From Pirellulales bacterium (GTDB lineage Bacteria; Planctomycetota; Planctomycetia; Pirellulales; UBA1268): 50,690 bases of DNA. Positions 252 through 38,387 of the stretch are shown in pieces. Position numbers and translations under genes: made by a program. The stretch spans positions 1 to 50,690 of the forward strand of contig JAQWMC010000002.1 of NCBI GenBank assembly GCA_029246985.1, in the 5' to 3' direction. Numbering within the stretch: the first letter of the stretch is position 1; each line of letters starts with the position of its first letter. The notes below the pieces were generated by a model, which was not told the DNA's origin, did not search any database, and saw only the letters and a program-made list of their open reading frames with translations.

Positions 252-2801
252 GTGATAGAAAATAGGAAAAGTTGTAAGCAAGTTGTGCGAATCGCTGCAG
301 CTACTCTTTGTAGTTTCGTGCTTCTCCCTCATGTATGCCGAGCCGCGCCAACGATTGGGAAAATTGTGCCCGCTGGTGCAACGCAAGGAAGTGAAGTTGA
401 AGTACTTGTGTTTGGCACAAATCTGCACGACCCACAGGCTCTTTTTTTTGAAGACGGAATTGTTCAGCAGACAAAGATCGAATCCGTTAACGATAAGCAG
501 TTGAAAGTGGTTCTGAACGTTCCGAAGGATGCTCCTTTTGGCAACCACCGCTTTCGAATTCGTACTAAAAAAGGTCTTTCACTGCTTCGTACTTTTCGAG
601 TGGGACCTTTCCCACAGGTGATTGAAGCGGAAACTGATTCGTCCCAGAAAAAGCCTTCAAACAACACAGTAGAGGAAGCGCAAGCGATTCAAGTCCCGCA
701 GGCTGGTGGTCTGACAATTGCTGGGGTCGTGGAGAAAGAAGACGTCGACTGTTATCAGGTAAGGCTCAAGAAGGGCAATCGTCTCTCGGTTGCTGTGGAC
801 GGCGTTCGGCTCAATTACACGCCCTTTGACCCCTATATCGACATTGTTGACAGCGATGGTTTTGTACTCACCGCGAGCGATGACCATCCGTTGATGGAAC
901 AAGATGCGATTATGGCGTTCACGGCCCCCGAAGACGGGAGCTTTTTTGTTCGGGTCCGTGAAAGTGCCTACGGTGGCAGTTCGGCTTGCAGCTATCTTCT
1001 GCATGTTGGCCGATTTCCAACACCATCAGTCGGACTTCCTCCGGGAGCAAACCCGGGGTCTGAGGTTGTCGTGAAATGGCTTGGTGATCCAGCAGGTGGA
1101 TTTGAGTCAAAAGTAAAAATCCCCAACGCGTTCCCTCGTGCGTCCTCTGAAATAAGCCGTTTGCTCTCGGTGCATCCGCGACGTGACGGAGTGATTGCAG
1201 CTGAAGCCGTTCCACTTCGAGTGACAAATCTTCCGGTGAGCAAGGAGACCGACTCCAATGATTCACCCGATGGGAATCCATCTGTCCCTGCCCCGGCTGC
1301 TATCTGGGGGCTTCTTGAAAAGGAGAACGACACTGACTGGATACGAATCGAAGCACCAAAAGGATCAAAATGGTCTGTGAAGGGATGGGGCAGACGTGTT
1401 GGTTCACCGATTGATTTGACGCTCAACGCGTATCGGGATAACGAAAAGCATGCTCGAATAACTGGTAATGATGATTCGGGTGGTCCAGATAGCTTGATGA
1501 ATGTAACAACTCCGGAAGAGGGCTCATTTCTCATTCGTGTGAGTGACCATCAGAAGCGCGGGGGTGATACTTTTGTTTGGTGGATCGAGGTTGAGCCGAT
1601 TGTGCCTCTTGTGAAACTTTCAGTGCCTCCGTCTCAAACAAAATCTCAAAATGACTTGTTTCCTCAAGTTCCCCGTGGGAATCGCACGACCGTAATCCTT
1701 AATGCCTCACGAAGTAACTTTAATGCTGAGTTAAAGTTGCTTTCTGAGAATCTTCCCAAAGGTGTTACTGCGACATGCCCGAACTTTCAAAATGGTGCAC
1801 CGGGGAGTTTTGTTGTATTCGAAGCGGTAAAGGATGCACCACTTTCCGCAGCGATGGCTGAATATAGAGCCGTAGACGCAGCTGATCAAACAAAAGTACT
1901 GGGCGGTCTGCAGCAAGGGACCGAGATGATTCATGGCAATCCGAATCGTACTCCATGGCGATACAGTCGAAGTACAGAAATGCCCGTGGCCGTTGTTGAA
2001 GAAGTCCCAGTTTCTCTGGAGCTCATTCAGCCTGCCGTTCCGCTTGTGAAAAATGGAAAAGCAGATCTTCTGGTTCGTGTCCATAAAGACGAAGGATTCA
2101 AAGGAAAGGTCCGACTCTTCTTTCCCTTCAAGCCACCTGGAATCGGAGCTGCATCTGGCGTCGATGTACCCGCTGATAAAAGTGAAGTGGTGTATCCGAT
2201 TAATGCAAGCGATAAGGCTCCTATTCATGATTGGGATGTTGTGGTGTCTGCAACTGTGACGTTTGAGGGAGAAGATGCCAAGGGTCGTCCGACGATACGA
2301 ATCTCATCTCGACCCGTAAAAATCACTGTGGCTGAACCATTTGTTCAAGTGGCACTCGACAAGGGAATGGCAGAGCAGGGACAGAACACAACATTCACCG
2401 GTACAGTTACCGTCCCAACAGCCTTCACGGGTGAAGCAAAGGCTGTTCTGCTGGGACTTCCTGCGAAAACAACGTCTGAGCCCCTTGTGATCACAGCAGA
2501 GAGTAAAGAGGTTGAGTTTGCAGTCGCCGTAGCCGCTGATGCTCCAGCTGGTAGGCATGCAAACATTGTCTGTGAAGTGCATGTTCCTCAAGAGGGACAT
2601 CAGATTGTTCACCGCATGGCGGCGACTGAATTTCGAATCGATAAGCCACTGCCAGCGAAGGTATCGGCTGCTCCAAAACCGGAGCCACCAAAGCCAAAAC
2701 AACAGAAGAAAAAAGTTTCACGTCGCGAGCAATTACGAATTCAGGCACGGGCGGTTTCACAGTCTGGTCCATCGCAAGAATCCAAAGGAGCCGCTCAGTG
2801 A
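252..2801 (+). CDS. Secreted PPC (pre-peptidase C-terminal) domain protein, planctomycete type
   Basis: Signal peptide, P.G...G..VEV N-terminus, two E.E.N / DVDCY / DTDWI and NDD PPC-like repeats, basic C-tail (VSRREQLR); no protease catalytic motif seen; start codon uncertain. Confidence 0.75.
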   Translation: MIENRKSCKQVVRIAAATLCSFVLLPHVCRAAPTIGKIVPAGATQGSEVEVLVFGTNLHDPQALFFEDGIVQQTKIESVNDKQLKVVLNVPKDAPFGNHRFRIRTKKGLSLLRTFRVGPFPQVIEAETDSSQKKPSNNTVEEAQAIQVPQAGGLTIAGVVEKEDVDCYQVRLKKGNRLSVAVDGVRLNYTPFDPYIDIVDSDGFVLTASDDHPLMEQDAIMAFTAPEDGSFFVRVRESAYGGSSACSYLLHVGRFPTPSVGLPPGANPGSEVVVKWLGDPAGGFESKVKIPNAFPRASSEISRLLSVHPRRDGVIAAEAVPLRVTNLPVSKETDSNDSPDGNPSVPAPAAIWGLLEKENDTDWIRIEAPKGSKWSVKGWGRRVGSPIDLTLNAYRDNEKHARITGNDDSGGPDSLMNVTTPEEGSFLIRVSDHQKRGGDTFVWWIEVEPIVPLVKLSVPPSQTKSQNDLFPQVPRGNRTTVILNASRSNFNAELKLLSENLPKGVTATCPNFQNGAPGSFVVFEAVKDAPLSAAMAEYRAVDAADQTKVLGGLQQGTEMIHGNPNRTPWRYSRSTEMPVAVVEEVPVSLELIQPAVPLVKNGKADLLVRVHKDEGFKGKVRLFFPFKPPGIGAASGVDVPADKSEVVYPINASDKAPIHDWDVVVSATVTFEGEDAKGRPTIRISSRPVKITVAEPFVQVALDKGMAEQGQNTTFTGTVTVPTAFTGEAKAVLLGLPAKTTSEPLVITAESKEVEFAVAVAADAPAGRHANIVCEVHVPQEGHQIVHRMAATEFRIDKPLPAKVSAAPKPEPPKPKQQKKKVSRREQLRIQARAVSQSGPSQESKGAAQ

Positions 2802-5302
2802 AAGATGAAGCTGGAGCAATTACATACTCGATGAGATGCCGTGTTTTTTGGAAATGTATCGGGCCAGTACTTTGTTGTCTTGCCACAACCTCTTTGTCGG
2901 CTCAAGAAAAAGCAGTCGTGGGAATAAAGGTTTTCCCTCCCGCAGTGCGGCTCGATTCAGCACGAGACTTCCAGACAATTATCGTGCAGGCAACGCGGGA
3001 AGATAGTGTGACTGAAGACGTAACACGTGCCGCCAAGATGGCTTTCAAAAATCCGGAATGTGCCACGCTTGAACGAATTGAGGGTGATGCCGGTCTTTCC
3101 ATTCGGCTTTCTCCGAAACAGGATGGCGATACTGTGCTGGTGATTACATATGGTGAGCATCAAGCCGAACTTCCAGTTAGCGTGCAATCAGCAGCAAAGG
3201 AACCTCCGCTGTCTTTTCGTTTGGACGTCATGCCCGTATTTGCCCGTGCCGGGTGCAATATGGGAAGTTGCCATGGGGCAGCTCGCGGGAAGGATGGATT
3301 TCGACTTTCCTTATTCGGTTTTGACCCGGCTGGTGATTACCACCGATTGACGCGTGAAATGCCCGGGCGGCGAATCAATCTTGGGAATCCCGAGGGGAGT
3401 CTGGTTGTTCAGAAAGCAGTCGGTGCGGTTGCTCATACAGGCGGGAAGCGTTTTGAGAAAGATAGCGAACTTGCAGACCGTCTCATTCGTTGGATTACAG
3501 CAGGGGCACAGGACGATCCAAATGCGGGTAAAGATATTCCAAAATTACAGGCGGTCGATCTGTATCCGCCCACAACTCTTCTTGAAGGCGAGCAAGCTAC
3601 TCAGCAATTGGTTGCCGTTGCCCGATTCTCAGATGGTACTGATAGAGATGTGACAGATCTCGTCTGGTATGGATCAAATAATGATGCATCTGTAGGCATC
3701 ACGTCGTCTGGAAATGCTGCTAGCGGCCAGCGAGGAGAGTCATTTGTCATGGCTCGATACGACACCATAACAGTCGGCGTTCCAGTTGTGGTCATTCCAA
3801 AGAATCTCACTTTCGAGTATCCCGAATCAGAGGGAAATACCTGGGTTGATGACCTCGTGGATACGAAGCTCAAGAGCCTTCGTATTGCACCCTCTCAAGT
3901 TTGTGGCGATGAAACATTTTTGCGTCGGGTCAGTATTGATCTTGTTGGGCTTCTTCCTACCCAAGAAGAAAGGGATGCTTTTCTTGCTGACAAGTCCCCA
4001 CAAAAAAGATCAGAGTACGTTGAACATTTGCTTGGTCGCAAAGAGTTTGTTGATCTTTGGGTGATGAAATGGGCAGAAATCCTGCAAATTCGCTCTATCA
4101 ATAATATTGTGGATAAAAAGGGTGCCTTGCTGTATCACCAATGGCTTGATCGCCGCATCGCCTCAAACCAGCCGGTTGATCAAATGGTACGAGACTTGGT
4201 AACGGCTTCTGGTGGGACTTTTGAAAATCCTCCCACCAATTATTATCAGGCTGAAAGAAATACCCTGAAGTTGACCGAAAATGTTGCGCAGGCCTTCTTG
4301 GGAATGCGGATTCAATGCGCGCAGTGTCATAATCATCCATTTGATCGATGGACAATGGATGACTACTACGGATTCGCAGCCTTCTTTGCCCAAATCGGAA
4401 GAAAGAGGGCAGATGATCCACGGGAGACCATCATCTACAACTCTGGTGGTGGTGGGATGAAGCATCCTGTGTCTGGCCAGACGGTGGCACCAAAATATCT
4501 AGGGGCAGGTGAAGCAGAGGTCACGAATCGAGACAGGCGAGAAGCTGTTGCAGAGTGGCTGGTATCACCCGAAAATCCATTTTTCGCAAAGCGAATTGCC
4601 AACCTTGTGTGGACTCATTTTCTTGGCAGAGGCATTGTTCATGAGCCGGATGATTTTCGTGTAAGTAATCCACCAGTGAATGGCCCGTTGCTTGATGCCC
4701 TGGCAAGCCATCTCGTGAAGTCAAAGTGGGATTTCAGAGAACTTGTCAGGGAGATTGTAAATTCAAAAACATATCAGCGAGCGTGCGACACAAACGATAC
4801 AAATGTGCTTGATAACTCAAATTTCTCACATTCGGCTGTGCGACGAATTCGGGCGGAGGTGCTTCTTGATATTCTTGCGCAGGTAACCGAAACAAAAAAT
4901 AAGTTCCCAGGTCTTCCTGAAGGAGCTCGGGCGGTTCAGGTGGCCGATGGTCGTACATCGACCTACTTTCTAACCACTTTCGGAAGGGCTACTCGGGAAG
5001 AGGTCTGTTCCTGTGCGGTGAGTATGGATCCAAGTCTATCGCAGGCACTCCATCTGCTTAATGGAGATGTTGGGAATCAGAGAATTCAGAAGGGTGGCGT
5101 TATTGATCGTTGGATTAAAGAAGGACGACCCGATACTGAAATTATTGATGAGCTCTTTGTTCGATGCTACGGAAGATTCCCCCAGGAGCGAGAGCGCGTC
5201 GAGACACTCGTAGCCGTTCAGGCTGGTACAGGGCGTAAGCAGTCCCTCGAGGATGTTTTCTGGGCACTTTTAAATTCACCTGAATTTATTTTTAACCATT
5301 AG
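2798..5302 (+). CDS. DUF1549/DUF1553 protein with Ig-like (Big_2) domains
   Basis: SFRLDVMPVF..AGCNMGSCHG, FLRRVSIDLVG, FLGMRIQCAQCHNHPFD, LGRGIV, EDVFWALLNSPEFIFNH; GTGA overlap with upstream stop. Confidence 0.9.
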   Translation: MKDEAGAITYSMRCRVFWKCIGPVLCCLATTSLSAQEKAVVGIKVFPPAVRLDSARDFQTIIVQATREDSVTEDVTRAAKMAFKNPECATLERIEGDAGLSIRLSPKQDGDTVLVITYGEHQAELPVSVQSAAKEPPLSFRLDVMPVFARAGCNMGSCHGAARGKDGFRLSLFGFDPAGDYHRLTREMPGRRINLGNPEGSLVVQKAVGAVAHTGGKRFEKDSELADRLIRWITAGAQDDPNAGKDIPKLQAVDLYPPTTLLEGEQATQQLVAVARFSDGTDRDVTDLVWYGSNNDASVGITSSGNAASGQRGESFVMARYDTITVGVPVVVIPKNLTFEYPESEGNTWVDDLVDTKLKSLRIAPSQVCGDETFLRRVSIDLVGLLPTQEERDAFLADKSPQKRSEYVEHLLGRKEFVDLWVMKWAEILQIRSINNIVDKKGALLYHQWLDRRIASNQPVDQMVRDLVTASGGTFENPPTNYYQAERNTLKLTENVAQAFLGMRIQCAQCHNHPFDRWTMDDYYGFAAFFAQIGRKRADDPRETIIYNSGGGGMKHPVSGQTVAPKYLGAGEAEVTNRDRREAVAEWLVSPENPFFAKRIANLVWTHFLGRGIVHEPDDFRVSNPPVNGPLLDALASHLVKSKWDFRELVREIVNSKTYQRACDTNDTNVLDNSNFSHSAVRRIRAEVLLDILAQVTETKNKFPGLPEGARAVQVADGRTSTYFLTTFGRATREEVCSCAVSMDPSLSQALHLLNGDVGNQRIQKGGVIDRWIKEGRPDTEIIDELFVRCYGRFPQERERVETLVAVQAGTGRKQSLEDVFWALLNSPEFIFNH

Positions 5303-5357
5303 TAGTTGAAAGCGTGTTCTCATCTCACACTGAGACACGTTTTGAGAATCTAAATCA

Positions 5358-7445
5358 ATGAATAGATATTTCAATGCGATGAAAAGAAATCACCGGCGAG
5401 GATTGCCATGTTCACGTACGTGGCAGTTTCTGAATGCTATGCTTTGTGTACTTCTTTTTTCTGCATCAACAGCAATGGCGGAGGACAAGCCTCCGACGTA
5501 CGAGGATCATGTGTTACCAGTTTTTCGTGAGAAGTGTTGTAGTTGTCACAATGCAGATCGAAAGGCTGGCGGGCTTGATTTGACGAGCTACCAGCAAATG
5601 ATGGCCGGCGGTAATTCGGGTGATGTCGTTGCTGGTGGAGATGCTGATGGATCCTATCTATGGCAGGTTGTCAGCCATGAATCAGAGCCAACGATGCCAC
5701 CTGATGCCGACCGTATTCCTGATGCGATGTTGAAGGTGATAAAGGAATGGATAGCTGGTGGAATTATTGAGCGGGATGGGGCAAGGCCTGTTGCTCAGAA
5801 GGCAAGTTCTTCGCTCGCTCTTGATTCCGGTTCAATTGTGAAGCCTAGCGGCCCACTGATTATGCCACCTCGCTTGTCACTCGAGCCATGTTTTCACGGA
5901 CTGCGGCCAACAACAATTCGGTCAATCGACGCCTCGCCTCATGGTGATCTTGTGGCAGTTGGAAGTAGCCAGCAGGTTTTATTGTTTGAGCCACGAACAC
6001 GTGAATGTATTGGTGTGCTGCCTTTTCCTGAAGGCGAGTGTACGAACCTTCGGTTTTCTCGGAGTGCAAAACTTCTTCTTTCGGGAGGAGGTATTGCTGC
6101 CAAAAGTGGTCGGGTGGTGATTTGGGATGTAGCCAGTGCTCAGCGAGTAATGGAACTCGGAGATGAGTTTGATGAGGTATTGGCTGCGGACCTGTCTGCT
6201 GATCAACGTCTGGTCGCTTTGGGAGGGTCGGCGAAGGTTGTACGTCTTCTTCAGACATCAAATGGTGTCGTAGAGAGTGAAATAACAAAACACACGGACT
6301 GGATAACCAGTGTTTCCTTTTCTCCTGACAGCGTGCTGCTCGCAACAGGTGATCGTGCAGGCAATCTTTTTCTGTGGGAGTCATTCGGTGCTCGCCATTG
6401 GGGAGATCTCAAAGGCCAAAAAGCTGGTATCACTGCAATTGACTGGCGAGCTGATGGGATTGTGCTAGCGACAGCGTCTGAGGATGGCACGATACATCTC
6501 TGGGAAGCCGATACTGCTAAGAAGGTGAAGTCCTGGTCTGCCCATGGCGGTGGAACAACCGATGTAAGGTGGCTTAACGATGGTCGGCTTGTATCAACGG
6601 GTCGTGATCGGAAAGTAAAACTATGGAAAGCTGACGGTACTCTTGAGAATGAACTTGGAACTCTTCCGGATATCGGTACAAAAGTGGCGGTTACCTCTGG
6701 GATTCCCCTTGTGATTGCCGGAGACTGGTCGGGTCAAATAACGATTTATGACGTTGCCAAACCAGCACAACTGGGCGTGTTGGATTCCAATCCAGAGCCA
6801 CTCTCGCAACGCGTAGATCGTGCCCAGAAAGCAACCGTTGCTTCAAAAAAGAAAGCACAGGAGGTTCTTTTAGAAAAAGAAAAGGCAGTAAAGACTGAGG
6901 CGAATCTCATTTCCCAGCTCGCCGCAGCCAATAAAAGTCTCGGTGTTACAGGCGGCGAAGAGAAAAATAAGAAGTCTCTAGCCGAAGTAGCTGCTGATGG
7001 AGTGAAAACAGTAGAGGCTCGACTGGTTGTGGTAAAAGCAAAGGTGAAGAAGGCGACCGAGATAGTCTCATCTCTTGAGAGCACGGTGAATGATACGAAT
7101 GGAAGTGCAGAGAAAGAGATTGCTGGAAAGATTCTGAATGCCGCAAAGAAAACATTAATAGAAACCCAGGCATCAGTCGTACGTGCTGAACAAGAGCTTC
7201 AGGAATCACGAAAGACAAACGCCGCTGCTATTAGTGAGCAGAAGGCTGCAGAGAAAAAGCTTGCTGATGTAAATTCACAAGTTAAACAACTCAATGAGCA
7301 AGTGGAAAATGCAGTAAGCAAACGAAAAACGCTCAGCGAAAAATACGCCAGCCTCGCGGGGGAATGTAAGGTGTGTGAGAAAATCCTGAAAAAGTGGCAA
7401 GACGAACTTGCCTTTTCACAGGGTGCTGGTCGTACATCCGAGTGA
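5358..7445 (+). CDS. Planctomycete cytochrome c (PSCyt1) + WD40 propeller + coiled-coil protein
   Basis: YEDHVLPVFREKCCSCH...GLDL...MPP...WI..G, then WD40 repeats (HTDWITSVSFSPD, LATASEDGTIHLWE) and a long A/E/K-rich coiled coil; signal peptide ends at AMA. Confidence 0.88.
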   Translation: MNRYFNAMKRNHRRGLPCSRTWQFLNAMLCVLLFSASTAMAEDKPPTYEDHVLPVFREKCCSCHNADRKAGGLDLTSYQQMMAGGNSGDVVAGGDADGSYLWQVVSHESEPTMPPDADRIPDAMLKVIKEWIAGGIIERDGARPVAQKASSSLALDSGSIVKPSGPLIMPPRLSLEPCFHGLRPTTIRSIDASPHGDLVAVGSSQQVLLFEPRTRECIGVLPFPEGECTNLRFSRSAKLLLSGGGIAAKSGRVVIWDVASAQRVMELGDEFDEVLAADLSADQRLVALGGSAKVVRLLQTSNGVVESEITKHTDWITSVSFSPDSVLLATGDRAGNLFLWESFGARHWGDLKGQKAGITAIDWRADGIVLATASEDGTIHLWEADTAKKVKSWSAHGGGTTDVRWLNDGRLVSTGRDRKVKLWKADGTLENELGTLPDIGTKVAVTSGIPLVIAGDWSGQITIYDVAKPAQLGVLDSNPEPLSQRVDRAQKATVASKKKAQEVLLEKEKAVKTEANLISQLAAANKSLGVTGGEEKNKKSLAEVAADGVKTVEARLVVVKAKVKKATEIVSSLESTVNDTNGSAEKEIAGKILNAAKKTLIETQASVVRAEQELQESRKTNAAAISEQKAAEKKLADVNSQVKQLNEQVENAVSKRKTLSEKYASLAGECKVCEKILKKWQDELAFSQGAGRTSE

Positions 7446-22470: not shown

Positions 22471-23844
22471 TTACTCTTGGGCTGCTGCCATCGTTGTGAT
22501 CCAGCCTGCAGCATAATCGGCAGAATCTAGTACGCCATTCAATGTGGAGTCAAACAGGTAATCCCCAACTACGAGTAGGTGTGGACACGTGCCAGTATCA
22601 GGGCAATGCTTTAGATCAGTTCCACGTTGTTGGAAGCCACCTGGCTGAGCACTTACTGCGCCGATCCAGCGATGTATTTTGGCCTCACAGAAAAGTTTTT
22701 TCGCCTCCTCTTGGTGAGATGGGAGTGATTTGAGTGCCGCAGATATAAGTTCCTCATCACTGTATTCGGCCATCGTTTGAGCAGCAGTGCCTCCGAGCAG
22801 CCAGCCGAGGACTCCATACTGTGCTTCCGGTATTCGTGACGATTCGTCATAGAGGCAACAGCCGTCAAAAGCATCAAGCATGCAGTACGAATCATGGAGC
22901 CATGATTTCCAGAATGGTTTCTCAAAGAGGATTGTGATCCGAAGGTAATCAGCAGGGTGATCATGGTGCGCAATGTGGTTTTGCATTGCAGAGGCAAGGG
23001 AGCTGTCGAGAAACACCAGTTTCTTCAGTGGCTCAATTGGGAGAGCGACGACAACAGCATCGAATTCTTCACTCTGATGACCATCTTCTGTGTTCCAAGA
23101 GAGTTCAAGTGTATTTTGTTTGCTCTTTTTGACAGTTGTTACTTTGGTATTCAATCGAACGCCTGCAGAGAGGCGACAGGCGAGAGCATGGACGAGAAGA
23201 TCATTGCCCCCAGTAATGCTGTACAGCTGCATATAAGCGGGATCGTTCATGAGATAGTTGTCGAGCCCATATCGATGGCTTGTCTGAGCAGGCTCAGCGG
23301 CAAGGTCGCTATGGATGTGCTGCTGAAGATACTCTTTGGTTTTTTTTGGTAGGCGATCTAGCGATGTGCTGAATCGCTCTTCTTGAAGACTCGTGCCCAA
23401 AGCATTGATGTGAGAAGTCGAAGTGCCGTCATAAAACTGCCGCGGTGAGACTTCTGATTTCGCGCGGTTGTTGAACCGTAGGAATTCGTGAAGAGCACCC
23501 TCACCAAGACTGTCGTGTGCATCCTCAATTGTTCCTAAGACCTTGTTTTCTTGGACTATTGATGTGCCGCCCATCGACTGCGTTTGAAGACCAAAGTGTT
23601 CAATGAGTTCTCGAAGCGGATCTTCATCTATCAGGGAGTAATCATAAAACTCAGCGGCACCAGCTTCGTACTGTATGCCTTTGGATGAAAAATGCTCAGT
23701 CAACAATTTCCCTCCGAGTCGATCGCTTGACTCGAAAATAGAAATGTTGAGAGGTGTGGAGCAGAGCTGCTCGAGACGATAGGCAGTAAAGAGGCCGCCC
23801 GGCCCTCCACCAATAATCCCAATATTCCACCGAGGTATGTTCAT
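22471..23844 (-). CDS. Flavin monoamine oxidase family FAD-dependent oxidoreductase
   Basis: GGGPGGL Rossmann motif, E.SDRLGGK, EAGA, F.KPFW, VGDY...TLNG...S. Confidence 0.88.
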   Translation of the reverse strand: MNIPRWNIGIIGGGPGGLFTAYRLEQLCSTPLNISIFESSDRLGGKLLTEHFSSKGIQYEAGAAEFYDYSLIDEDPLRELIEHFGLQTQSMGGTSIVQENKVLGTIEDAHDSLGEGALHEFLRFNNRAKSEVSPRQFYDGTSTSHINALGTSLQEERFSTSLDRLPKKTKEYLQQHIHSDLAAEPAQTSHRYGLDNYLMNDPAYMQLYSITGGNDLLVHALACRLSAGVRLNTKVTTVKKSKQNTLELSWNTEDGHQSEEFDAVVVALPIEPLKKLVFLDSSLASAMQNHIAHHDHPADYLRITILFEKPFWKSWLHDSYCMLDAFDGCCLYDESSRIPEAQYGVLGWLLGGTAAQTMAEYSDEELISAALKSLPSHQEEAKKLFCEAKIHRWIGAVSAQPGGFQQRGTDLKHCPDTGTCPHLLVVGDYLFDSTLNGVLDSADYAAGWITTMAAAQE

Positions 23845-32500: not shown

Positions 32501-32714
32501 GAAAATCGAGGGTAGGCTCAGGCTTCTTGATGTACGTTTGGGACATGTATTTCCTAATGGAAATCAAGAACGTAACCAGTTGGCGAATTTGTTGAATCGT
32601 GAGAATGGAGAGGCACTAGCTGACGAAGTGTTTCAAACAACTACTTGGGTACGCAGTGTCTTTGATAAAATATTTTCTAGTATGCAGTCTGATCTGGCTC
32701 AAAAAAATACCTAG
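29574..32714 (+). CDS. glnE: Glutamine synthetase adenylyltransferase/deadenylase GlnE
   Basis: Two nucleotidyltransferase domains: LGKLGG.ELNYSSDIDL/VDLRLRP/WERQA/GGIRDIEF and MGKFGG.EMNYASDVD/VDSRLRP/GGVIDIEF. Confidence 0.95.
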   Translation: MPMPDRTNFSKVTHFLEDRSALDRWARGIGLTDGENANQCFKKLGEQDVDFDLLRFLIEGLERLLPLYGEADRLLVTLDRFLQAVPSPDATIALFEQEPESLDALLAILATSPFLGEIVIAEPDVWERIRCGGGRPEKRESLRDILRSEVGDSLDAAFVMQVLRRFKRREILRVAYGDIVKQQRLETVVDQISAIADCIVDEALRVSILQQEQRRGIPLGRDNQPATITVIALGKLGGNELNYSSDIDLVFCYSEDGDIAGSKTYTTSEFFERIVQEVTRLIADQTELGAAYRVDLRLRPYGGRGPLVLPRAALERYYDRQGRTWERQAWVKARCVAGDMQLGEDLLSSLRPWVYSRWLPRTEISGIRALKRQIERRSIREGIDSADLKTGRGGIRDIEFTIQFLQLLSGGDEAGVRVGNTIEAIRRLAANGSLNDQEREILERNYRLLRTVEHRLQILYDRQTHRLPENEDEFARLAGRLGYGRQVNAATELRRDLDAATRLNRRILDHLLHDAFPGEVTPEADVDLILDPKPPKELIDSVLVPRRFRDVTRAYRMVTALSEESSHFLSSRRCRHFFASILSRLLDRISATPDPDATLNTLNAVSESLGGKGMLWELLSESPGALDLTIRFCSSAPFLAELLVKNPGMIDELQDSLLGGGMATRDDLTNELWELCGRHSVDVLPSLIAFKVSKQLRIGINDLLEQQSPHVITASLSDLAESLLQFVVSSQKPILPQKMRFMKKGDNSIECMGFVVLAMGKFGGREMNYASDVDVVFLYDEKTAGECLGECSDSEFGFLFGEIANKVLQVFNRFTPQGRLYEVDSRLRPGGRSGPIVSSLEAFQRYFSSEGPAAVWERQSLTKARVVFGGEAAVQRAKSVVHAAVYDHCWKESDVKEIYSMRLRMEETAAKDNLKRGPGGVIDIEFLVQALQLIYGKNNVDLQTPNTLAALDSLALAGIIKNEMAQSLRDAYDLLRKIEGRLRLLDVRLGHVFPNGNQERNQLANLLNRENGEALADEVFQTTTWVRSVFDKIFSSMQSDLAQKNT

Positions 32715-33394
32715 TGGTCTCGAAGAAAACTGATTGCATAAACACCAATAAGTACAAGCAGCCCAAAAAGTAAGGTTACTCTTTCAAGGTACTTGTCAAG
32801 AATATCGCGAGCCTGTTTGCCAAATAATCTCATGATGGTAGCAACCAAAAAAAAGCGACCACCTCGTCCAATGGAAGATGCAATTATGAGAGTAGGGAGT
32901 GGTACAGAGCAGGCGCCGGCTGCGATTGTAAAAATCTTAAAGGGTATTGGTGTGAATGCTGAAAGTATGAGCCAAAGAAAAGCATTGTCTTGGTAAAGAG
33001 ATTCAACATAGTTAAATTTTTCAGACGTAAAGCCAGGAATGACACTGTAAAAAAAAGTATCTACGAATTGCCACAGTCCCCACCCAATTGCCCAGCCTGC
33101 AACAGCTCCGAGAACACTTGCGACCACTGATACGGCTGCAAAAAGATAGCTTTTTTTTGGCTTGCTGACAGAGAGTGCAACTTGCAGAACATCTGGTGGG
33201 ATTGGGAAAAAAGAACTCTCTGCAAATGATATTCCAGCCAAAGCAATCAAGCCGTGTGGAGAATCTGCCCAAGAAAGAACCCAGTTGTAAAGTCGTCGGA
33301 GTAGTCCGCGAGGTTTCGGGGTGTCCACCGCGGAGGCATCTGCATGTGCCTGCTCAATAATAGGAGTTTCAGAAGACGTCGGTGAGAAAGGCAT
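32711..33394 (-). CDS. YqaA/DedA (VTT, SNARE-associated) membrane protein
   Basis: SFAESSFFPIPPD, FTPIPFKIFTIAAG, GRGGRFF; start ATG 33394 with aaggaa SD. Confidence 0.88.
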   Translation of the reverse strand: MPFSPTSSETPIIEQAHADASAVDTPKPRGLLRRLYNWVLSWADSPHGLIALAGISFAESSFFPIPPDVLQVALSVSKPKKSYLFAAVSVVASVLGAVAGWAIGWGLWQFVDTFFYSVIPGFTSEKFNYVESLYQDNAFLWLILSAFTPIPFKIFTIAAGACSVPLPTLIIASSIGRGGRFFLVATIMRLFGKQARDILDKYLERVTLLFGLLVLIGVYAISFLRDH

Positions 33395-33444
33395 GCTGTT
33401 TTCCTTTAGATTGGGAAAATCATAGCATGTGCCAAAGCATGACG

Positions 33445-34545
33445 TTAGGCCGTTTCCGGCTGCGTTGATAGCCACTCGCAAAGAACTTCGTGAGCTGGAG
33501 TTACAACGAGATAGACAAGGAGTGAAAGAAGGGCGAGGTCACGAAAGTGAGCAGGGCTTGAAAGACTCCACCACGCTACTCCAAGTAAAATCCATGTAGG
33601 AAGGAGTAGAGGCATCGCTGCTTTATGGACGATGAGGACCTGTCGTAAAGGGTGTATTTCCACACTGGGTGAGGTGAAGTGGCTTGCAAGTGCAGGCATT
33701 TGCTTCCAGCTGTGAAAAGCTAAGAAGTATATTCCAATACCAAAAAGTGGAGATGCAATGAGTTCGAGGACGCCAATAAGGCAATATGAAACAAAGACAC
33801 CTCCTGTTTTCATGAGTTTCTTCGTACCGTGTTTCTTTGAATATCGAGCCGAATGAATGAAAATTAAACACCAGCAGAAACTTGCAATCGCAAGAAGTGC
33901 GAGGCCTGTAATGGCAATATGCAATGGTGAGTAAATCGGATGCGCGAGTAAAGGCAATCCGATGAGAGAACGAGCCGGCTCAACGAGGGTTATGAGTTCT
34001 GTTGCAACAGAAGACGTAGCAGCTGGCCAAGCTGCAAGCGGCGTGCCTATAACAATGCCGCCTTTCGCGAAGCCCATGAGAAGATGCTCATAGGAAATCC
34101 CAGATTCAATGGGTTTTGGGTTTTCAGAACTCCCAAAATGCCAGATGCTGAGAATGATAAAACCGACGAGGCTTGTTCCAGGTGCAAGTATAAAGATTGT
34201 AAATACACCGATCATCGAGACGACGTACCATAAAAAAGCTTCCCATACTTTTCGCCCTTCTTTCTTGGATTGAAGTACAGCAAGATCTGCTGCACCATGA
34301 GGCATGCCTACAAAGAAGAGTGCAATAAGCCACGGAAGCACTTCAATTTCTTTGGGTGTCGCCTGTTTGTAGAACAAGGAAAACCCAATCGTGGCCCCAA
34401 TCAGAAATAAAGGCAGCACAGTAAACCACACTGTCTGCCGAGCTGTACGGACATCTTTTTCACGGACCCTACTCGCAAAAAAAAGTTTCCGTTGAGCAGT
34501 CTGACTTATCGCGAACATGGCAACGATCCCGTGAGACACAGTCAT
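33445..34545 (-). CDS. blh: Brp/Blh beta-carotene 15,15'-dioxygenase (retinal-forming)
   Basis: Four Fe-ligand His motifs GMPHGAAD, SIWHFG, AFHS, TPAH in a multi-TM protein directly downstream of the rhodopsin; true start may be 34518 or later. Confidence 0.88.
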   Translation of the reverse strand: MTVSHGIVAMFAISQTAQRKLFFASRVREKDVRTARQTVWFTVLPLFLIGATIGFSLFYKQATPKEIEVLPWLIALFFVGMPHGAADLAVLQSKKEGRKVWEAFLWYVVSMIGVFTIFILAPGTSLVGFIILSIWHFGSSENPKPIESGISYEHLLMGFAKGGIVIGTPLAAWPAATSSVATELITLVEPARSLIGLPLLAHPIYSPLHIAITGLALLAIASFCWCLIFIHSARYSKKHGTKKLMKTGGVFVSYCLIGVLELIASPLFGIGIYFLAFHSWKQMPALASHFTSPSVEIHPLRQVLIVHKAAMPLLLPTWILLGVAWWSLSSPAHFRDLALLSLLVYLVVTPAHEVLCEWLSTQPETA

Positions 34546-34592: not shown

Positions 34593-35348
34593 CTAAGCTG
34601 TCTGCTTTGATGAATGACTCAAAGCTTCAATGCCCCAATAAGCCGCCAGGCCAAAGCCAACCTTATTGATTACATCAGCGACATTGTAAAAGATTTCACG
34701 AACTTCACCTAAGCCACCATAAGCCATGAGGAATCCAATTGGGTAAATTGCCCATCCGATCAGGATGAACAACCTCATCGTATCAAGCGCCTTGGCAATA
34801 GGAGCTGGAGCTGCTTTTATGGCAGAGCCAAGACCTGTGTAGAGAGTTGCAACAATTAAAAGTTCCAGGACGCACGCGACCAGGAAGAATCCCCACCACT
34901 CGTTTGAAGCAACTGGTGAAGTCTCTGCAATAAAAGCACAAACAATCATTCCGATGTCAAGCGTTACAAGCTGTACAAAAAACTTTTTACCTTTGTCACC
35001 AAGCCGCAGCAAGAGTGGGAACTTAATGAGCATCAAGGGCGTCGTAAAGAGCCAGTCGATGTAGCGCAAGGCTGTTGGGAATTGACCGCCAGAATCTTGA
35101 TATACATGTGTCATTTTAAAATAATGAAAACATGCAATGCCGCACACGAGACCTGCACATACCATTGTGCTTCGATAGGCCACATCGACATTGTTTCGCA
35201 TGAGCAGAAAGTAAGCTGCTCCCGCACCCATCGCGACTGTTCCTGCAAAGAATAGATAAAGGGTAACTGACTGTAACGGTGCGTTTTGCGACCAGTCATA
35301 CGAAAGTGCTGCCAGCGTTCCGGCAACATTAGCAAACAGAGCAATCAT
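34593..35348 (-). CDS. Type 1 microbial rhodopsin, DTK motif (proteorhodopsin/ESR-like proton pump)
   Basis: 7 TM; helix B FHY, helix C RYIDWLFTTPLMLIK, helix F GWAIYP, helix G DVINKVGFG with Schiff-base Lys; start ATG 35348 with AAGGAG SD; 251 aa. Confidence 0.96.
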   Translation of the reverse strand: MIALFANVAGTLAALSYDWSQNAPLQSVTLYLFFAGTVAMGAGAAYFLLMRNNVDVAYRSTMVCAGLVCGIACFHYFKMTHVYQDSGGQFPTALRYIDWLFTTPLMLIKFPLLLRLGDKGKKFFVQLVTLDIGMIVCAFIAETSPVASNEWWGFFLVACVLELLIVATLYTGLGSAIKAAPAPIAKALDTMRLFILIGWAIYPIGFLMAYGGLGEVREIFYNVADVINKVGFGLAAYWGIEALSHSSKQTA

Positions 35349-35439
35349 CTGAAACTCCTTGTAACTTGAATTTGAGGAACAGTGCCGAACACTAGCAAAA
35401 GTTCCCCGTGGTGTACTGGTATGTGCCAATATTCCAGAC

Positions 35440-35482
35440 ACCTTACCGTTTTTTGAATAATAGCGTCAAAATTGTTTTTGAC
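35440..35482 (-). promoter_or_regulatory. Putative sigma70 promoter of the rhodopsin gene with overlapping palindrome
   Basis: Minus strand TTGACG (35469-35464)-N18-TAAGGT (35445-35440); inverted repeat GTCAAAA-N4-TTTTGAC at 35465-35482. Confidence 0.45.
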
Positions 35483-35514
35483 ACCCTAGATCAACAGGGT
35501 GTTTTCAGCCAAAA

Positions 35515-36468
35515 TTAAGGTTTGCCCTGACGCATCTTTCCGATTCGAGCCTGCTCTACGAGATCAAGACCCACGTTTTTAGACCAGGCGTTAAGGAGTT
35601 CATGAAAGACTGGGCCTGGGACGCCTTTCCCAATTGGGTTTCTATCAATTTGCACTGCCGCCAGTACACACCAGGGTGTACTGGTCAGAAAGACTTCGTC
35701 GGCAGTCAGAAGTTCATCTCTTTTAAATGATCGTGATTCCCAATGAAAGCCTGCATTCTGGGCTAAACTTTTGAGGTAAAGCATACTTATACCAGGCAGG
35801 GCGTCTCGTTCAGGGGGTGTGACGATAGTCCTTCCATGCAAAGCGGCGACATTTGCAGTTGATGTTTCACTGATACGTCCATCTGCATGGGATAAGAGGG
35901 GGCGGGAACCTTTTTCGGATATGGAAGCCTCCTGCTCGGCGAGGAAGTAATGAAGTCGACTACGCACTTTGGCAGTGATCGGCCAGCATTCTTCTGGAAC
36001 TTGTTGGATACCAACACATTGAAGATGTATGCCAGATTCATAGGAGTCGGCCCATAGGCTGTAAGCAAGCGGGAATGTGTGGACGGTTAAGGAGGGTTTT
36101 CCAGTCAAACCATTATTCTGTGCTGGCAATAGCCCTGGAGTAATAAAAATAATCACGCCGAGGTCGTAGTCTGTCGGCTTCTTGTTTTGCGTGAGCAGCC
36201 TGTGATTATGCGATGCGACTTGATTTGCAGCAGAGAAAATCGACTGCATGGTCTTGTTTGGATCAATGCCTACTTCGTGAAGTGAATTTGCCAGCCTTTT
36301 AGCATGATCATCAGGAAGGAAAATCTCACCGCGGATAGTGCGTAACTGTTCGGTTACAGTGGCTCCCAGCACAAATCCAGCATCACCTGGCGCAATGGAG
36401 AGTTGATCACGGGGCAAAAGTTTTCCATCTTGCCAAGCAATCTCCGACGAATATACCTGCCGATTCAT
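35515..36468 (-). CDS. Class IV aminotransferase (BCAT/PabC-like)
   Basis: D.GF..G....E.LRT, H..RL..S, catalytic Lys in AKVRS, E.STANV, LPGI, ADEVFLTST; start moved to ATG 36468 because the longer ORF runs through the tRNA. Confidence 0.88.
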   Translation of the reverse strand: MNRQVYSSEIAWQDGKLLPRDQLSIAPGDAGFVLGATVTEQLRTIRGEIFLPDDHAKRLANSLHEVGIDPNKTMQSIFSAANQVASHNHRLLTQNKKPTDYDLGVIIFITPGLLPAQNNGLTGKPSLTVHTFPLAYSLWADSYESGIHLQCVGIQQVPEECWPITAKVRSRLHYFLAEQEASISEKGSRPLLSHADGRISETSTANVAALHGRTIVTPPERDALPGISMLYLKSLAQNAGFHWESRSFKRDELLTADEVFLTSTPWCVLAAVQIDRNPIGKGVPGPVFHELLNAWSKNVGLDLVEQARIGKMRQGKP

Positions 36469-36553
36469 GAAATACTCAACAGCCAGCAGTGCCTTTCGAT
36501 CGTAAAGTTTCCGCTGACTCGCAGAAACTTCTTTGTATGTGGGCAAGTTGGAG

Positions 36554-36626
36554 TGGAGGATAGGGGACTCGAACCCCTGACCTTCTGGCTGCCAGCCAGA
36601 CGCTCTCCCAACTGAGCTAATCCCCC
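36554..36626 (-). tRNA. tRNA-Ala(GGC), CCA not encoded
   Basis: GGGGGAT-TA-GCTCAGTTGGGAGAGC-G-TCTGG-CTGGCAG-CCAGA-AGGTC-AGGGG-TTCGAGT-CCCCT-ATCCTCC-A; G3:U70 and A73 Ala identity elements. Confidence 0.97.
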
Positions 36627-36849
36627 TCGTAAGGTACTCGCTCACATGGTTCCATGCTCAAACAGAACCTTTCCAGCATTCTGTAACTATCAAACCTATC
36701 GTGCCCTTCTATCAGTGTCAACGTGACAGTTCGGGTTCGGCTCGAAAGCGTTCTAAGAAAAATGTGCGATGCTCTGGTGTAAGCCAAGGATGTCAATCAG
36801 ACTGGATAAATCGGTTGAAAACAAATAGGTGCGAAGTTGGAAATGACTT

Positions 36850-37473
36850 ATGTTTTTAGAACAGAACAAACATTCTAAAAGAGGCTCGTGGGGAGAAATG
36901 CCACGAGCATGTGCCACTGTTTTTTTGGCAATTTATTTTACTGGTCTTGGCCTTACTGTGGCGTGCAATACCAGTAGTGGTTCTTCTTTGCTGTTGAGTG
37001 TCGTCAAAGGAAAACTATTTTCTTTTTGGCTCGTACCTCCCTGGCTTGATCTTGGCTTTGATTATCCTCTTTCATATGGCCAGCAGGCGGACGCCGCTCA
37101 CTACCTTGAACTTCGAGAATATGGTCAAGAGAAATGGATAAAACTTTCAGGGATCGATGGAAAACATTCGCAATCGATCCGTTGGCAACGATTGCTTCAT
37201 TCGGTTATTGCCAGTGAAGAAGAGGCAGGGAGAGAAGGTCTCTTGCCAGCAGGGTTTTCCGAAGCAGCTTTCTCACTATGTGAAAGTGATGATATCGTTC
37301 TACGGATTCTTGTTCAGCCTCGACCTGAGCGACAATTGCCCCTAGGGAATCCTGCCCCAATTGTTCTCTATGAGGCCCGGCTTCGTAAACTTTCTGGTGG
37401 TGATATTCAACTGATCAAGAGTGAGCATCACCGAGAAATGGCACCGGTCATTTCTGGAAGTGGTGGTGCATGA
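36850..37473 (+). CDS. Hypothetical membrane-anchored protein, partner of the HTTM gene
   Basis: N-terminal hydrophobic helix; ATGA overlap with the downstream HTTM gene; start may be ATG 36898. Confidence 0.7.
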   Translation: MFLEQNKHSKRGSWGEMPRACATVFLAIYFTGLGLTVACNTSSGSSLLLSVVKGKLFSFWLVPPWLDLGFDYPLSYGQQADAAHYLELREYGQEKWIKLSGIDGKHSQSIRWQRLLHSVIASEEEAGREGLLPAGFSEAAFSLCESDDIVLRILVQPRPERQLPLGNPAPIVLYEARLRKLSGGDIQLIKSEHHREMAPVISGSGGA

Positions 37474-38387
37474 TGGGCAATTCACATAGTACTTCCGCTG
37501 ACCAAAGTTCAGAGGGTGCACTCGAGCAGGCATGGGAAGCCTATTGGTTCTTGCCTACAGTCAGCTGTTCACTTGCTGTTGTACGTGTCGTGACGGGTGT
37601 TCTTGGCTTACTTTTGTGCGCAACCTACGGAACGGATCTTTCTGGATGGTTTGGGCCTCGCGGCTGGCTACCTATTGATTCGGTGATTGCCTGGCGATCG
37701 TCATTTGCCTATTCGATATTTGACGCATGCGAGACAAACACTCATCTCTCGGTTGCTTTTTACGGTCTGGTCTCTCTTTTTGGCTTTCTTACTATTGGTT
37801 TTCTTACCCCAGTCACGTCACTTCTGGCTGCTCTTGGATGGGCCTCATTGCTTCATCGCGGTCCAATGCTGGCTGGTCCTGCAGATGATGGTATGGCGAT
37901 CCTTCTTTGGTGTCTTGTCATTGGCTCTTCAGGAGAGTATTTTTCCATCGATGCGATATTGCACAGGCGTCTTGGTTGGTATGCCAGTCGACCTCGAGTT
38001 CGAACTCGCATTGCGGTAGGGCTATTACAGGTGCATGCGGCAGTCATTTCTCTGGCTGCTCTTCTTGCCCAACTCAAGGGTGATGTATGGTGGAATGGCA
38101 CGGCCGTGTGGTGGATTGCAACACGAAAACCAGGGCAAGTAGTTGATATAACAGGTTTTCTTTCTCAGTCGGAATATCTATGCAATATCCTTACGCACGG
38201 AGTGATAGCCTGGGAAGCGTTCGTGGCAGTCGGCATTTGGTTTACGTTCTCACAGAAAATCGTTGCGCGAGCCGGCCTTGTCGTATGGCCAATCATCGGT
38301 GTCTTGACGGCTTGTCCACTGTGGGGATTGGTGATGGCTACGCTAACTATTCCACTCACGCAACTTGTTGATGGAGCTAAGTCATGA
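37470..38387 (+). CDS. HTTM-domain membrane protein (VKGC/SdpB-related), divergent
   Basis: AWEAYWF.P....LAVVRV..G, FSIDA, LLQVH.....L.G..WWNGTA, multi-TM. Confidence 0.75.
   Translation: MMGNSHSTSADQSSEGALEQAWEAYWFLPTVSCSLAVVRVVTGVLGLLLCATYGTDLSGWFGPRGWLPIDSVIAWRSSFAYSIFDACETNTHLSVAFYGLVSLFGFLTIGFLTPVTSLLAALGWASLLHRGPMLAGPADDGMAILLWCLVIGSSGEYFSIDAILHRRLGWYASRPRVRTRIAVGLLQVHAAVISLAALLAQLKGDVWWNGTAVWWIATRKPGQVVDITGFLSQSEYLCNILTHGVIAWEAFVAVGIWFTFSQKIVARAGLVVWPIIGVLTACPLWGLVMATLTIPLTQLVDGAKS

Follow-up and report, generated by a model that had tools for sequence, protein, structure and literature searches.

An ESR-like DTK rhodopsin gene with an adjoining blh gene in a planctomycete

The opsin-blh locus

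The 50,690-nt stretch of Pirellulales DNA analyzed here (contig JAQWMC010000002.1, positions 1 to 50,690; hereafter the window) carries an intact gene for a type-1 rhodopsin with an adjoining gene of the Brp/Blh family, blh. The encoded opsin, which served as the query in the comparisons below, resembles the rhodopsin of Exiguobacterium sibiricum (ESR) and is of the DTK type, with Asp, Thr, and Lys at bacteriorhodopsin positions 85, 89, and 96; its host is a planctomycete. The features of the locus and other parts of the window are listed in Table 1.

Table 1. Coordinates of annotated features, numbered from the first letter of the window (ORF, open reading frame)
Feature	Position	Strand	Remarks
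PSCyt2 and PSD1 (DUF1549/DUF1553) in one ORF; next ORF, PSCyt1 fused to a WD40 propeller	2798..7445		taxon markers
Amine-oxidase-family flavoprotein gene	22471..23844	-	weak prenylcysteine-lyase match
VTT/DedA-type membrane protein gene	32711..33481	-	overlaps blh 3' end; PF09335, E 2.8e-9
blh, Brp/Blh beta-carotene 15,15'-dioxygenase family, 366 aa	33445..34545	-	PF15461, E 9.9e-35
Perfect 15-bp hairpin, 3-nt loop	34548..34580	-	between opsin stop and blh start
Rhodopsin gene, 251 aa	34593..35348	-	open frame; stop TAG 34595-34593; PF01036
Codons D225 to K229, helix G	34662..34676	-	predicted second counterion and Schiff-base lysine; placed by script, opposite ESR D221/K225
Helix C motif R95-K109, RYIDWLFTTPLMLIK	35022..35066	-	D98, T102, M106, K109 placed by script
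Codon of H75, helix B	35124..35126	-	predicted partner of D98; placed by script, opposite ESR H57
Shine-Dalgarno sequence AAGGAG	35355..35360	-	6 nt ahead of ATG 35348; taken from the sequence itself
Promoter-like site GTGTCA-16-TATTAT	35457..35484	-	weak; annotation only
Aminotransferase class IV gene	35515..36645	-	upstream of opsin
ORF, no Pfam family	36850..37473	+	upstream of opsin
ORF, no Pfam family	37470..38387	+	upstream of opsin

The initial annotation had given the coordinates of the rhodopsin gene exactly; the gene is encoded on the minus strand. Direct translation yields a stop-free frame of 251 aa from ATG 35348, while the longest frame in a mechanical list of ORFs has 282 aa and begins at GTG 35441; the ATG is the preferred start because a Shine-Dalgarno sequence precedes it and the 251-aa homologues begin at the same Met. 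The promoter-like site farther upstream was discarded as evidence, since chance alone would give 4.9 such sites in the region and only 3 occur. The product matches the Pfam family PF01036 (Bac_rhodopsin) over residues 31-235 with E 3.4e-42 and 144.9 bits (cut-off, 24.6), and it is the only PF01036 gene in the 2.45-Mb, 79.5%-complete genome to which the window belongs (G000). The guanine-plus-cytosine content of the gene (46.3%) is within one standard deviation of the window mean (48.2%, standard deviation 2.1) and thus gives no sign of recent transfer.

An AlphaFold2 model built from an alignment of 50 sequences reached a predicted local distance difference test score of 93.4 and a predicted template modeling score of 0.88. 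Its helices (24-53, 56-85, 92-114, 119-143, 149-172, 182-210, and 214-250) are consistent with seven transmembrane segments, and a Foldseek comparison of the model with the Protein Data Bank (PDB) retrieved 350 chains at E<=0.001, the best 40 of which are all rhodopsins.

The blh gene starts 47 nt downstream of the opsin stop, and its product scores 122 bits against TIGR03753 (cut-off, 95.25). The same arrangement, with blh directly downstream of the opsin on the same strand, was found in 52 of the 67 related loci with a flank of 1100 nt or more, and the two genes are very probably co-transcribed. A gene for the VTT protein follows blh in loci L002-L006, L009-L011, L014, and L055, and in L029 it stands downstream of an opsin that has no blh match. 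The genes surrounding the opsin are housekeeping genes; the aminotransferase gene upstream of it and the two ORFs beyond recur in many loci of the clade, with identities of 33-92% across clade loci.

The spacer between the opsin and blh is occupied by a hairpin whose 3' arm stops 2 nt short of the blh ATG. The fold has a computed energy of -34.5 kcal/mol (z -7.19), which none of 200 shuffled sequences equaled, and across 10 related sequences 97.3% of the alignment cells are paired, with changes on both sides in 4 of the 15 pairs. A repeated element scattered over the genome was rejected as an explanation, since the 10-nt core is present as an inverted pair nowhere but at the opsin-blh locus. 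The hairpin may serve as an attenuator of read-through or as a mask over the blh start and so keep blh expression low relative to that of the opsin.

Residues, relatives, and phylogenetic position

Among proteins in the PDB, the best sequence match of the opsin is ESR (4hyj; E 4.6e-49, 170.8 bits), followed by a marine actinobacterial rhodopsin (5jsi, 117.5 bits) and green proteorhodopsin (111.7 bits). The Foldseek search likewise placed ESR first (4hyj_A, E 4.8e-14, template modeling [TM] scores 0.83/0.88, 43% identity), ahead of marine actinobacterial rhodopsins (MAR/MacR), xanthorhodopsin, and proteorhodopsins. In a HMMER alignment to 4hyj, which is ungapped over helix C and in which pairs were counted along the printed chain, H75, R95, D98, T102, M106, and K109 lie opposite ESR H57, R82, D85, T89, L93, and K96, and D225 and K229 lie opposite D221 and K225. 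By way of ESR D85, T89, and K96, residues D98, T102, and K109 occupy bacteriorhodopsin positions 85, 89, and 96, and all of the placements in the initial annotation, including H75 and the D225/K229 pair, were recovered by the script and by this alignment. H75 as the counterpart of ESR H57 is known here from sequence only, as the presence of the residue.

Conservation was counted in 121 proteins (the query and the best 120 of 607 matches) and in 79 loci kept from 555 confirmed relatives; the joint alignment has 200 rows, 1-2 of them gapped in each column, and the counts refer to rows with a letter there. Both D98 and T102 are kept in 198/198 rows, K109 in 191/199, and D225 and K229 each in 199/199, and the position of H75 holds His in 194/198. 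In the protein set, 120 sequences include helix C, with 116 DTK, 3 DTT, and 1 DTQ motifs; in the locus set the corresponding number is 77, with 73 DTK, 2 DTT, and 2 DTE. With ESR the closest relative of known structure by both sequence and fold and with these residues conserved in the clade, the description of DTK plus a His-Asp pair as the ESR arrangement was borne out.

ESR (4HYJ), of which E17R is a close homologue, corresponds to the query one to one in the D/T/K motif, the His partner, the Arg, and the helix G pair of Asp and Lys. Two further elements, FPLL after the lysine and RE before helix G, are named as common to ESR-type DTK pumps in a passage of PMC10519204. The query reads FPLLLRLG, in which the Gly comes two residues later than in the FPLLxG of those pumps, and VRE; a 50-sequence alignment shows no variation at F110 and P111 and almost none at R217 and E218. 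ESR differs in having insertions in the B-C, D-E, and F-G loops, in its Leu at the tuning site where the query has Met, and in its host, which belongs to the Bacillota rather than the Planctomycetota. In addition, blh adjoins the query opsin, whereas no blh was detected in loci L072-L079 from Exiguobacterium and Alkalicoccus.

Green proteorhodopsin (7b03, 2l6x, 8cnk) shares with the query the fold (TM scores 0.78-0.79), the His-Asp pair, the Asp and Thr of the motif, and a hydrophobic tuning residue, whereas its donor is a Glu (E108), and in the alignment to 7b03 the Glu lies opposite K109. The query is thus not a proteorhodopsin in the strict (DTE) sense. Xanthorhodopsin-like opsins from three genomes of the same planctomycete family (G043, G079, and G132) also have blh directly after the opsin but differ in helix C, which reads RYADWILTVPLLMVE (DTE).

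Relatives of the opsin were collected in two ways. A word-index search yielded 607 proteins at E<=0.001 among 2660 candidates, and the best 120 of these are 94-56% identical to the query; the named proteins among them come from metagenome-assembled genomes (MAGs) of Pirellulales, Planctomycetia, Planctomycetaceae, Gemmataceae, or Lacipirellulaceae or from Stratiformator vulcanicus. In the genome-collection scan that gave the locus set, the top ten loci are 89-98% identical and come from Pirellulales, Planctomycetaceae, or Planctomycetota MAGs, the nearest being a Pirellulales bacterium MAG at 98%, while the Exiguobacterium loci are 45-46% identical. The close loci share neighboring genes with the window at 57-92% identity. 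The planctomycete host named in the initial annotation is well supported by the hosts of these close loci, by the shared neighboring genes, and by the PSCyt1, PSCyt2, and PSD1 domains encoded elsewhere in the window.

For the phylogeny, an exhaustive representative search gave 980 matches at E<=0.001; a quick tree was computed from 127 rows and a careful tree from 70 of them, hand-picked to represent each clade. Groups in the careful tree were named through one representative each compared with the PDB (P0130 for ESR, P0174 for xanthorhodopsin, P0181 and P0137 for proteorhodopsins), and P0150 was assigned to the marine actinobacterial rhodopsins (MACR) by its length and matched range. The query falls in a clade of 21 rows from Planctomycetota, Verrucomicrobiota, and one Acidobacteriota, with support of 100/100 (ultrafast bootstrap [UFBoot]/Shimodaira-Hasegawa-like approximate likelihood ratio test [SH-aLRT]). 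Seventeen of these rows are DTK, 3 DTE, and 1 DTT; all keep the Asp, and 20 keep the His. The sister group is the ESR clade of 14 rows (100/99), joined at UFBoot 89 / SH-aLRT 88. Together with further DTK lineages the two clades form a weakly supported group (76/87) apart from the proteorhodopsins, which make up a separate clade of their own (100/99), and from xanthorhodopsins and MACR. The opsin is accordingly an ordinary member of the PVC (Planctomycetota/Verrucomicrobiota) rhodopsin clade, and the comparison with proteorhodopsins, xanthorhodopsins, and ESR that the initial annotation had proposed as a check places it, with moderate support, next to ESR.

On the ESR side, seven of the 14 rows (P0133, P0136, P0139, P0141, P0146, P0157, and P0188) lack both the lysine and the histidine. 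They read DTI, DTV, DTM, DTN, or DTE and are consistent with the sensors described in a passage of PMC10519204.

Met at the tuning site (residue 106 of the query) is a minority state, found in 17/120 proteins and 13/77 loci. The residue marks the subgroup of the window (L002-L011) and recurs in the distant L058, L071, and L080; other loci of the clade have Leu.

A BLASTP alignment by way of a xanthorhodopsin-like representative suggested that G153 corresponds to Gly156 of xanthorhodopsin, presumably the small residue at the carotenoid window of that protein. The candidate was dropped: the alignment places a gap inside a helix, the HMMER register to proteorhodopsin differs, and an alignment anchored on helix E makes F154 or F155, not G153, the counterpart. 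We make no claim about an antenna site.

Predicted function and its place in the literature

We consider it likely that the protein binds retinal, absorbs green light, and uses light to pump protons outward, as a DTK-type pump that works in the manner of ESR. Light would isomerize a retinal bound to K229, upon which the proton of the Schiff base would move to D98, a residue kept in place by H75 and supported by R95 and D225. K109, at the site taken by Asp or Glu in other pumps, would then help to reprotonate the Schiff base from the cytoplasm, and the blh product would supply the retinal by cleaving beta-carotene. The predicted color follows the view, stated in passages of PMC5673642 and bioRxiv 10.1101/2022.08.01.502354, that Leu or Met at proteorhodopsin position 105 tunes the PVC clade to green; the association of Met with green absorption in the initial annotation agrees with these papers.

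The part assigned to K109 is supported by its retention in 191/199 rows and across several deep DTK lineages. Passages of PMC4871484 describe ESR and E17R as sharing the acceptor D85, the partner His57, and Lys96 as a putative donor, and ESR is called a functional proton pump in a passage of PMC13043013. An outward pump in which K109 is not the true donor, with reprotonation through water as in DTG and DTS pumps and with the lysine in a structural or access-tuning role, would accommodate the Thr or Gln found at the donor site in the clade (3 DTT and 1 DTQ of 120 proteins, 2 DTT of 77 loci), and pumps without a carboxylic donor do exist according to a passage of PMC8927995. Set against the conservation of the lysine and the description of its ESR counterpart, this alternative appears improbable to us.

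We regard a photosensory or other non-pumping role as more improbable still. Sensory rhodopsins related to proteorhodopsin are most similar to DTK pumps according to a passage of PMC10519204, and the ESR-side clade contains DTI, DTV, DTM, and DTN rows without the histidine. The query, however, retains the acceptor Asp, its His partner, and the Lys, and its own clade keeps the Asp in 21/21 rows and the His in 20/21; its neighbors encode the aminotransferase, Blh, and the VTT protein, with no transducer-like gene among them.

Several points weigh against the assignment as an ESR-like pump. Identity to ESR is only 43-46%, the sister relation of the two clades is only moderately supported, and the 127-row quick tree set the query clade beside xanthorhodopsins plus MACR (SH-aLRT 84) with the backbone open. 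The donor site varies within the query clade itself, in the DTE and DTT rows counted above. Our statements on the ESR mechanism draw on the cited passages of PMC4871484 and PMC13043013 and on general background, and a literature search, with subscription journals and supplementary trees outside it, found no expressed member of the clade. The opsin sequence is present in RNA libraries (see below), which is not proof of transcription. Finally, searches of G000, itself 79.5% complete, and of seven DTK relatives turned up neither a lycopene cyclase nor a phytoene synthase, so that a self-made chromophore is unaccounted for.

Most of what the opsin displays has been described before. As early as 2017, a verrucomicrobial rhodopsin was placed in 'a new clade', closest to that of Exiguobacterium and possibly typical of the PVC superphylum (PMC5673642); the first marine members of the clade followed in 2018 (PMC6040077), five green-light rhodopsins in freshwater Planctomycetes in 2019 (PMC6461901), and an explicit statement of the DTK motif of the clade in planctomycetes in 2023 (a passage of bioRxiv 10.1101/2022.08.01.502354). 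PMC13043013 (2026) remarks on a branch that ends at E. sibiricum and diverges at position 96. A term search of a 2025 review of the phylum returned neither rhodopsin nor retinal. The query shares with the published PVC rhodopsins the ESR neighborhood, the green tuning by Leu or Met, and the DTK motif in planctomycetes, and nothing essential differs. Since all of this is in print, and since proteins 94-98% identical to the query are already in public collections, the finding is already known and the rhodopsin adds nothing as a discovery. As to the suggestion in the initial annotation of a possibly poorly characterized clade, the existence of the clade, its neighborhood, and its motif had been reported, and our literature search turned up no expressed member.

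Lysine-donor pumps break the rule that proton-pumping rhodopsins have a carboxylate donor. In ESR, lysine 96 is said, by the title of a 2013 report by Balashov, to facilitate reprotonation. In the literature that we searched, experimental work on such pumps was cited only for ESR and its close homologue E17R. The planctomycete and verrucomicrobial clade is large (the 607 proteins matched in the word-index search) and according to the papers cited above occurs in freshwater and marine samples, and its members are reasonable candidates for a test of how general the ESR mechanism is.

Retinal supply and occurrence in samples

The source of retinal is a question of modest interest that the genomes of relatives bring out. 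Of 151 genomes sampled from the order, 10 gave a match to rhodopsin, and 7 of these belong to the family of the window. Four of the latter carry DTK opsins (G000, G107, G120, and G062) and three carry the DTE opsins introduced above, with blh after the opsin in both types. In the DTE genomes, a lycopene cyclase gene lies on the same contig as the opsin-blh pair, full-length in G043 and G079 and in two neighboring pieces in G132, and the opsin contig of all three also bears a third SQS_PSY gene; in G079 and G043, a CrtI homologue stands between the cyclase and this third copy. The DTK genomes have no full-length lycopene cyclase; as for SQS_PSY, G062 and G120 each carry an adjacent pair of genes, G107 carries one partial gene, and none was found in G000. 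Four further genomes with opsins 91-98% identical to the query (G001-G004) repeat the DTK pattern, with two full adjacent SQS_PSY genes.

In the eight DTK genomes (G000, G001-G004, G107, G062, and G120), we found no full-length PF05834, no PF18916, and no third SQS_PSY gene, the search having covered these two cyclase families in genomes that are interrelated and of which G000 is incomplete. Partial PF05834 matches in these genomes were rejected as cyclases, since they extend over no more than the first 143 of the 380 profile positions, the FAD-binding N-terminal part, and a 482-aa ORF on C150 proved to be a protoporphyrinogen oxidase. With the CrtY and CrtB proteins of the relatives as queries, tblastn returned nothing in G000 at E<=1e-5, and among loci L002-L080 it matched only L071 and L080.

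For the tandem SQS_PSY pair of G001, which precedes hpnE, the best-scoring assignments are hpnC and hpnD, with hpnC above and hpnD below the cut-off. Planctomycetes are reported, in a passage of PMC9907078, to make C30 carotenoids from squalene through HpnCDE. In G000, two CrtI-family genes lie beside a glycosyltransferase gene on contig C45 (4382-7769). The flavoprotein encoded elsewhere in the window (Table 1) was considered as a carotenoid desaturase and rejected on the basis of NCBIfam.

The hosts of DTK opsins are probably unable to make beta-carotene themselves. Because blh is present and no cyclase or phytoene synthase was found, the precursor of the chromophore may have to come from outside. 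We tentatively suggest, as a possibility that we rate a little below even, that the DTK lineages of this family of small-genome planctomycetes run phototrophy on a borrowed carotenoid, with an opsin and a hairpin-linked blh and with no recognizable route to beta-carotene, the genes present being those of the squalene route (hpnCDE) and the CrtI family. The sister genomes with a DTE rhodopsin have the complete opsin-blh-crtY-crtI-crtB cluster. Within this reading, beta-carotene might be scavenged from algae or hosts, or an unrecognized cyclase or a non-canonical chromophore might be used. If it holds, these bacteria, having an opsin and blh but no synthesis of beta-carotene, would rely on the carotenoids of other organisms, which is an ecological lead and more useful than the rhodopsin itself. 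The photoheterotroph with an ESR-like mechanism that the initial annotation had envisaged is thus upheld in its molecular likeness to ESR and incomplete as a phototroph, with blh in place and the carotenoid genes not found.

The same null results, in the profile searches of the eight DTK genomes and in the tblastn search of G000, would fit an opsin that is a largely idle remnant, in a cell unable to make the chromophore and with a protein whose working depends on an outside supply of retinal or beta-carotene. This we think unlikely. The opsin and blh are intact and kept together across many genomes, the hairpin between them has been maintained through compensatory changes, RNA libraries of two studies contain the opsin sequence, and the cyclase search behind the null results covered two families only.

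The RNA libraries are marine metatranscriptomes, and contigs from both studies cover the opsin almost without differences: an 812-nt contig of library X15 spans 34663-35454 with 1 difference, and two pieces from X17 show 0-2 differences. The X15 contig ends at 35454 in a loose poly-T end, and contigs of X15 and X16 do not cover blh or the aminotransferase gene; contigs of RNA libraries cannot show levels, starts, or absence, and nothing was drawn from these gaps.

At the DNA level, at least half of the words of the window were found in runs of nine studies, one of which is possibly the source sample. The labels of these runs include sponge metagenome, marine metagenome, metagenome, food metagenome, and two coded organisms; the small-share runs X17-X20 were left out when habitats were named. 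Whereas the papers on the PVC clade began from freshwater members, the stretch analyzed here occurs in marine and sponge metagenome runs.

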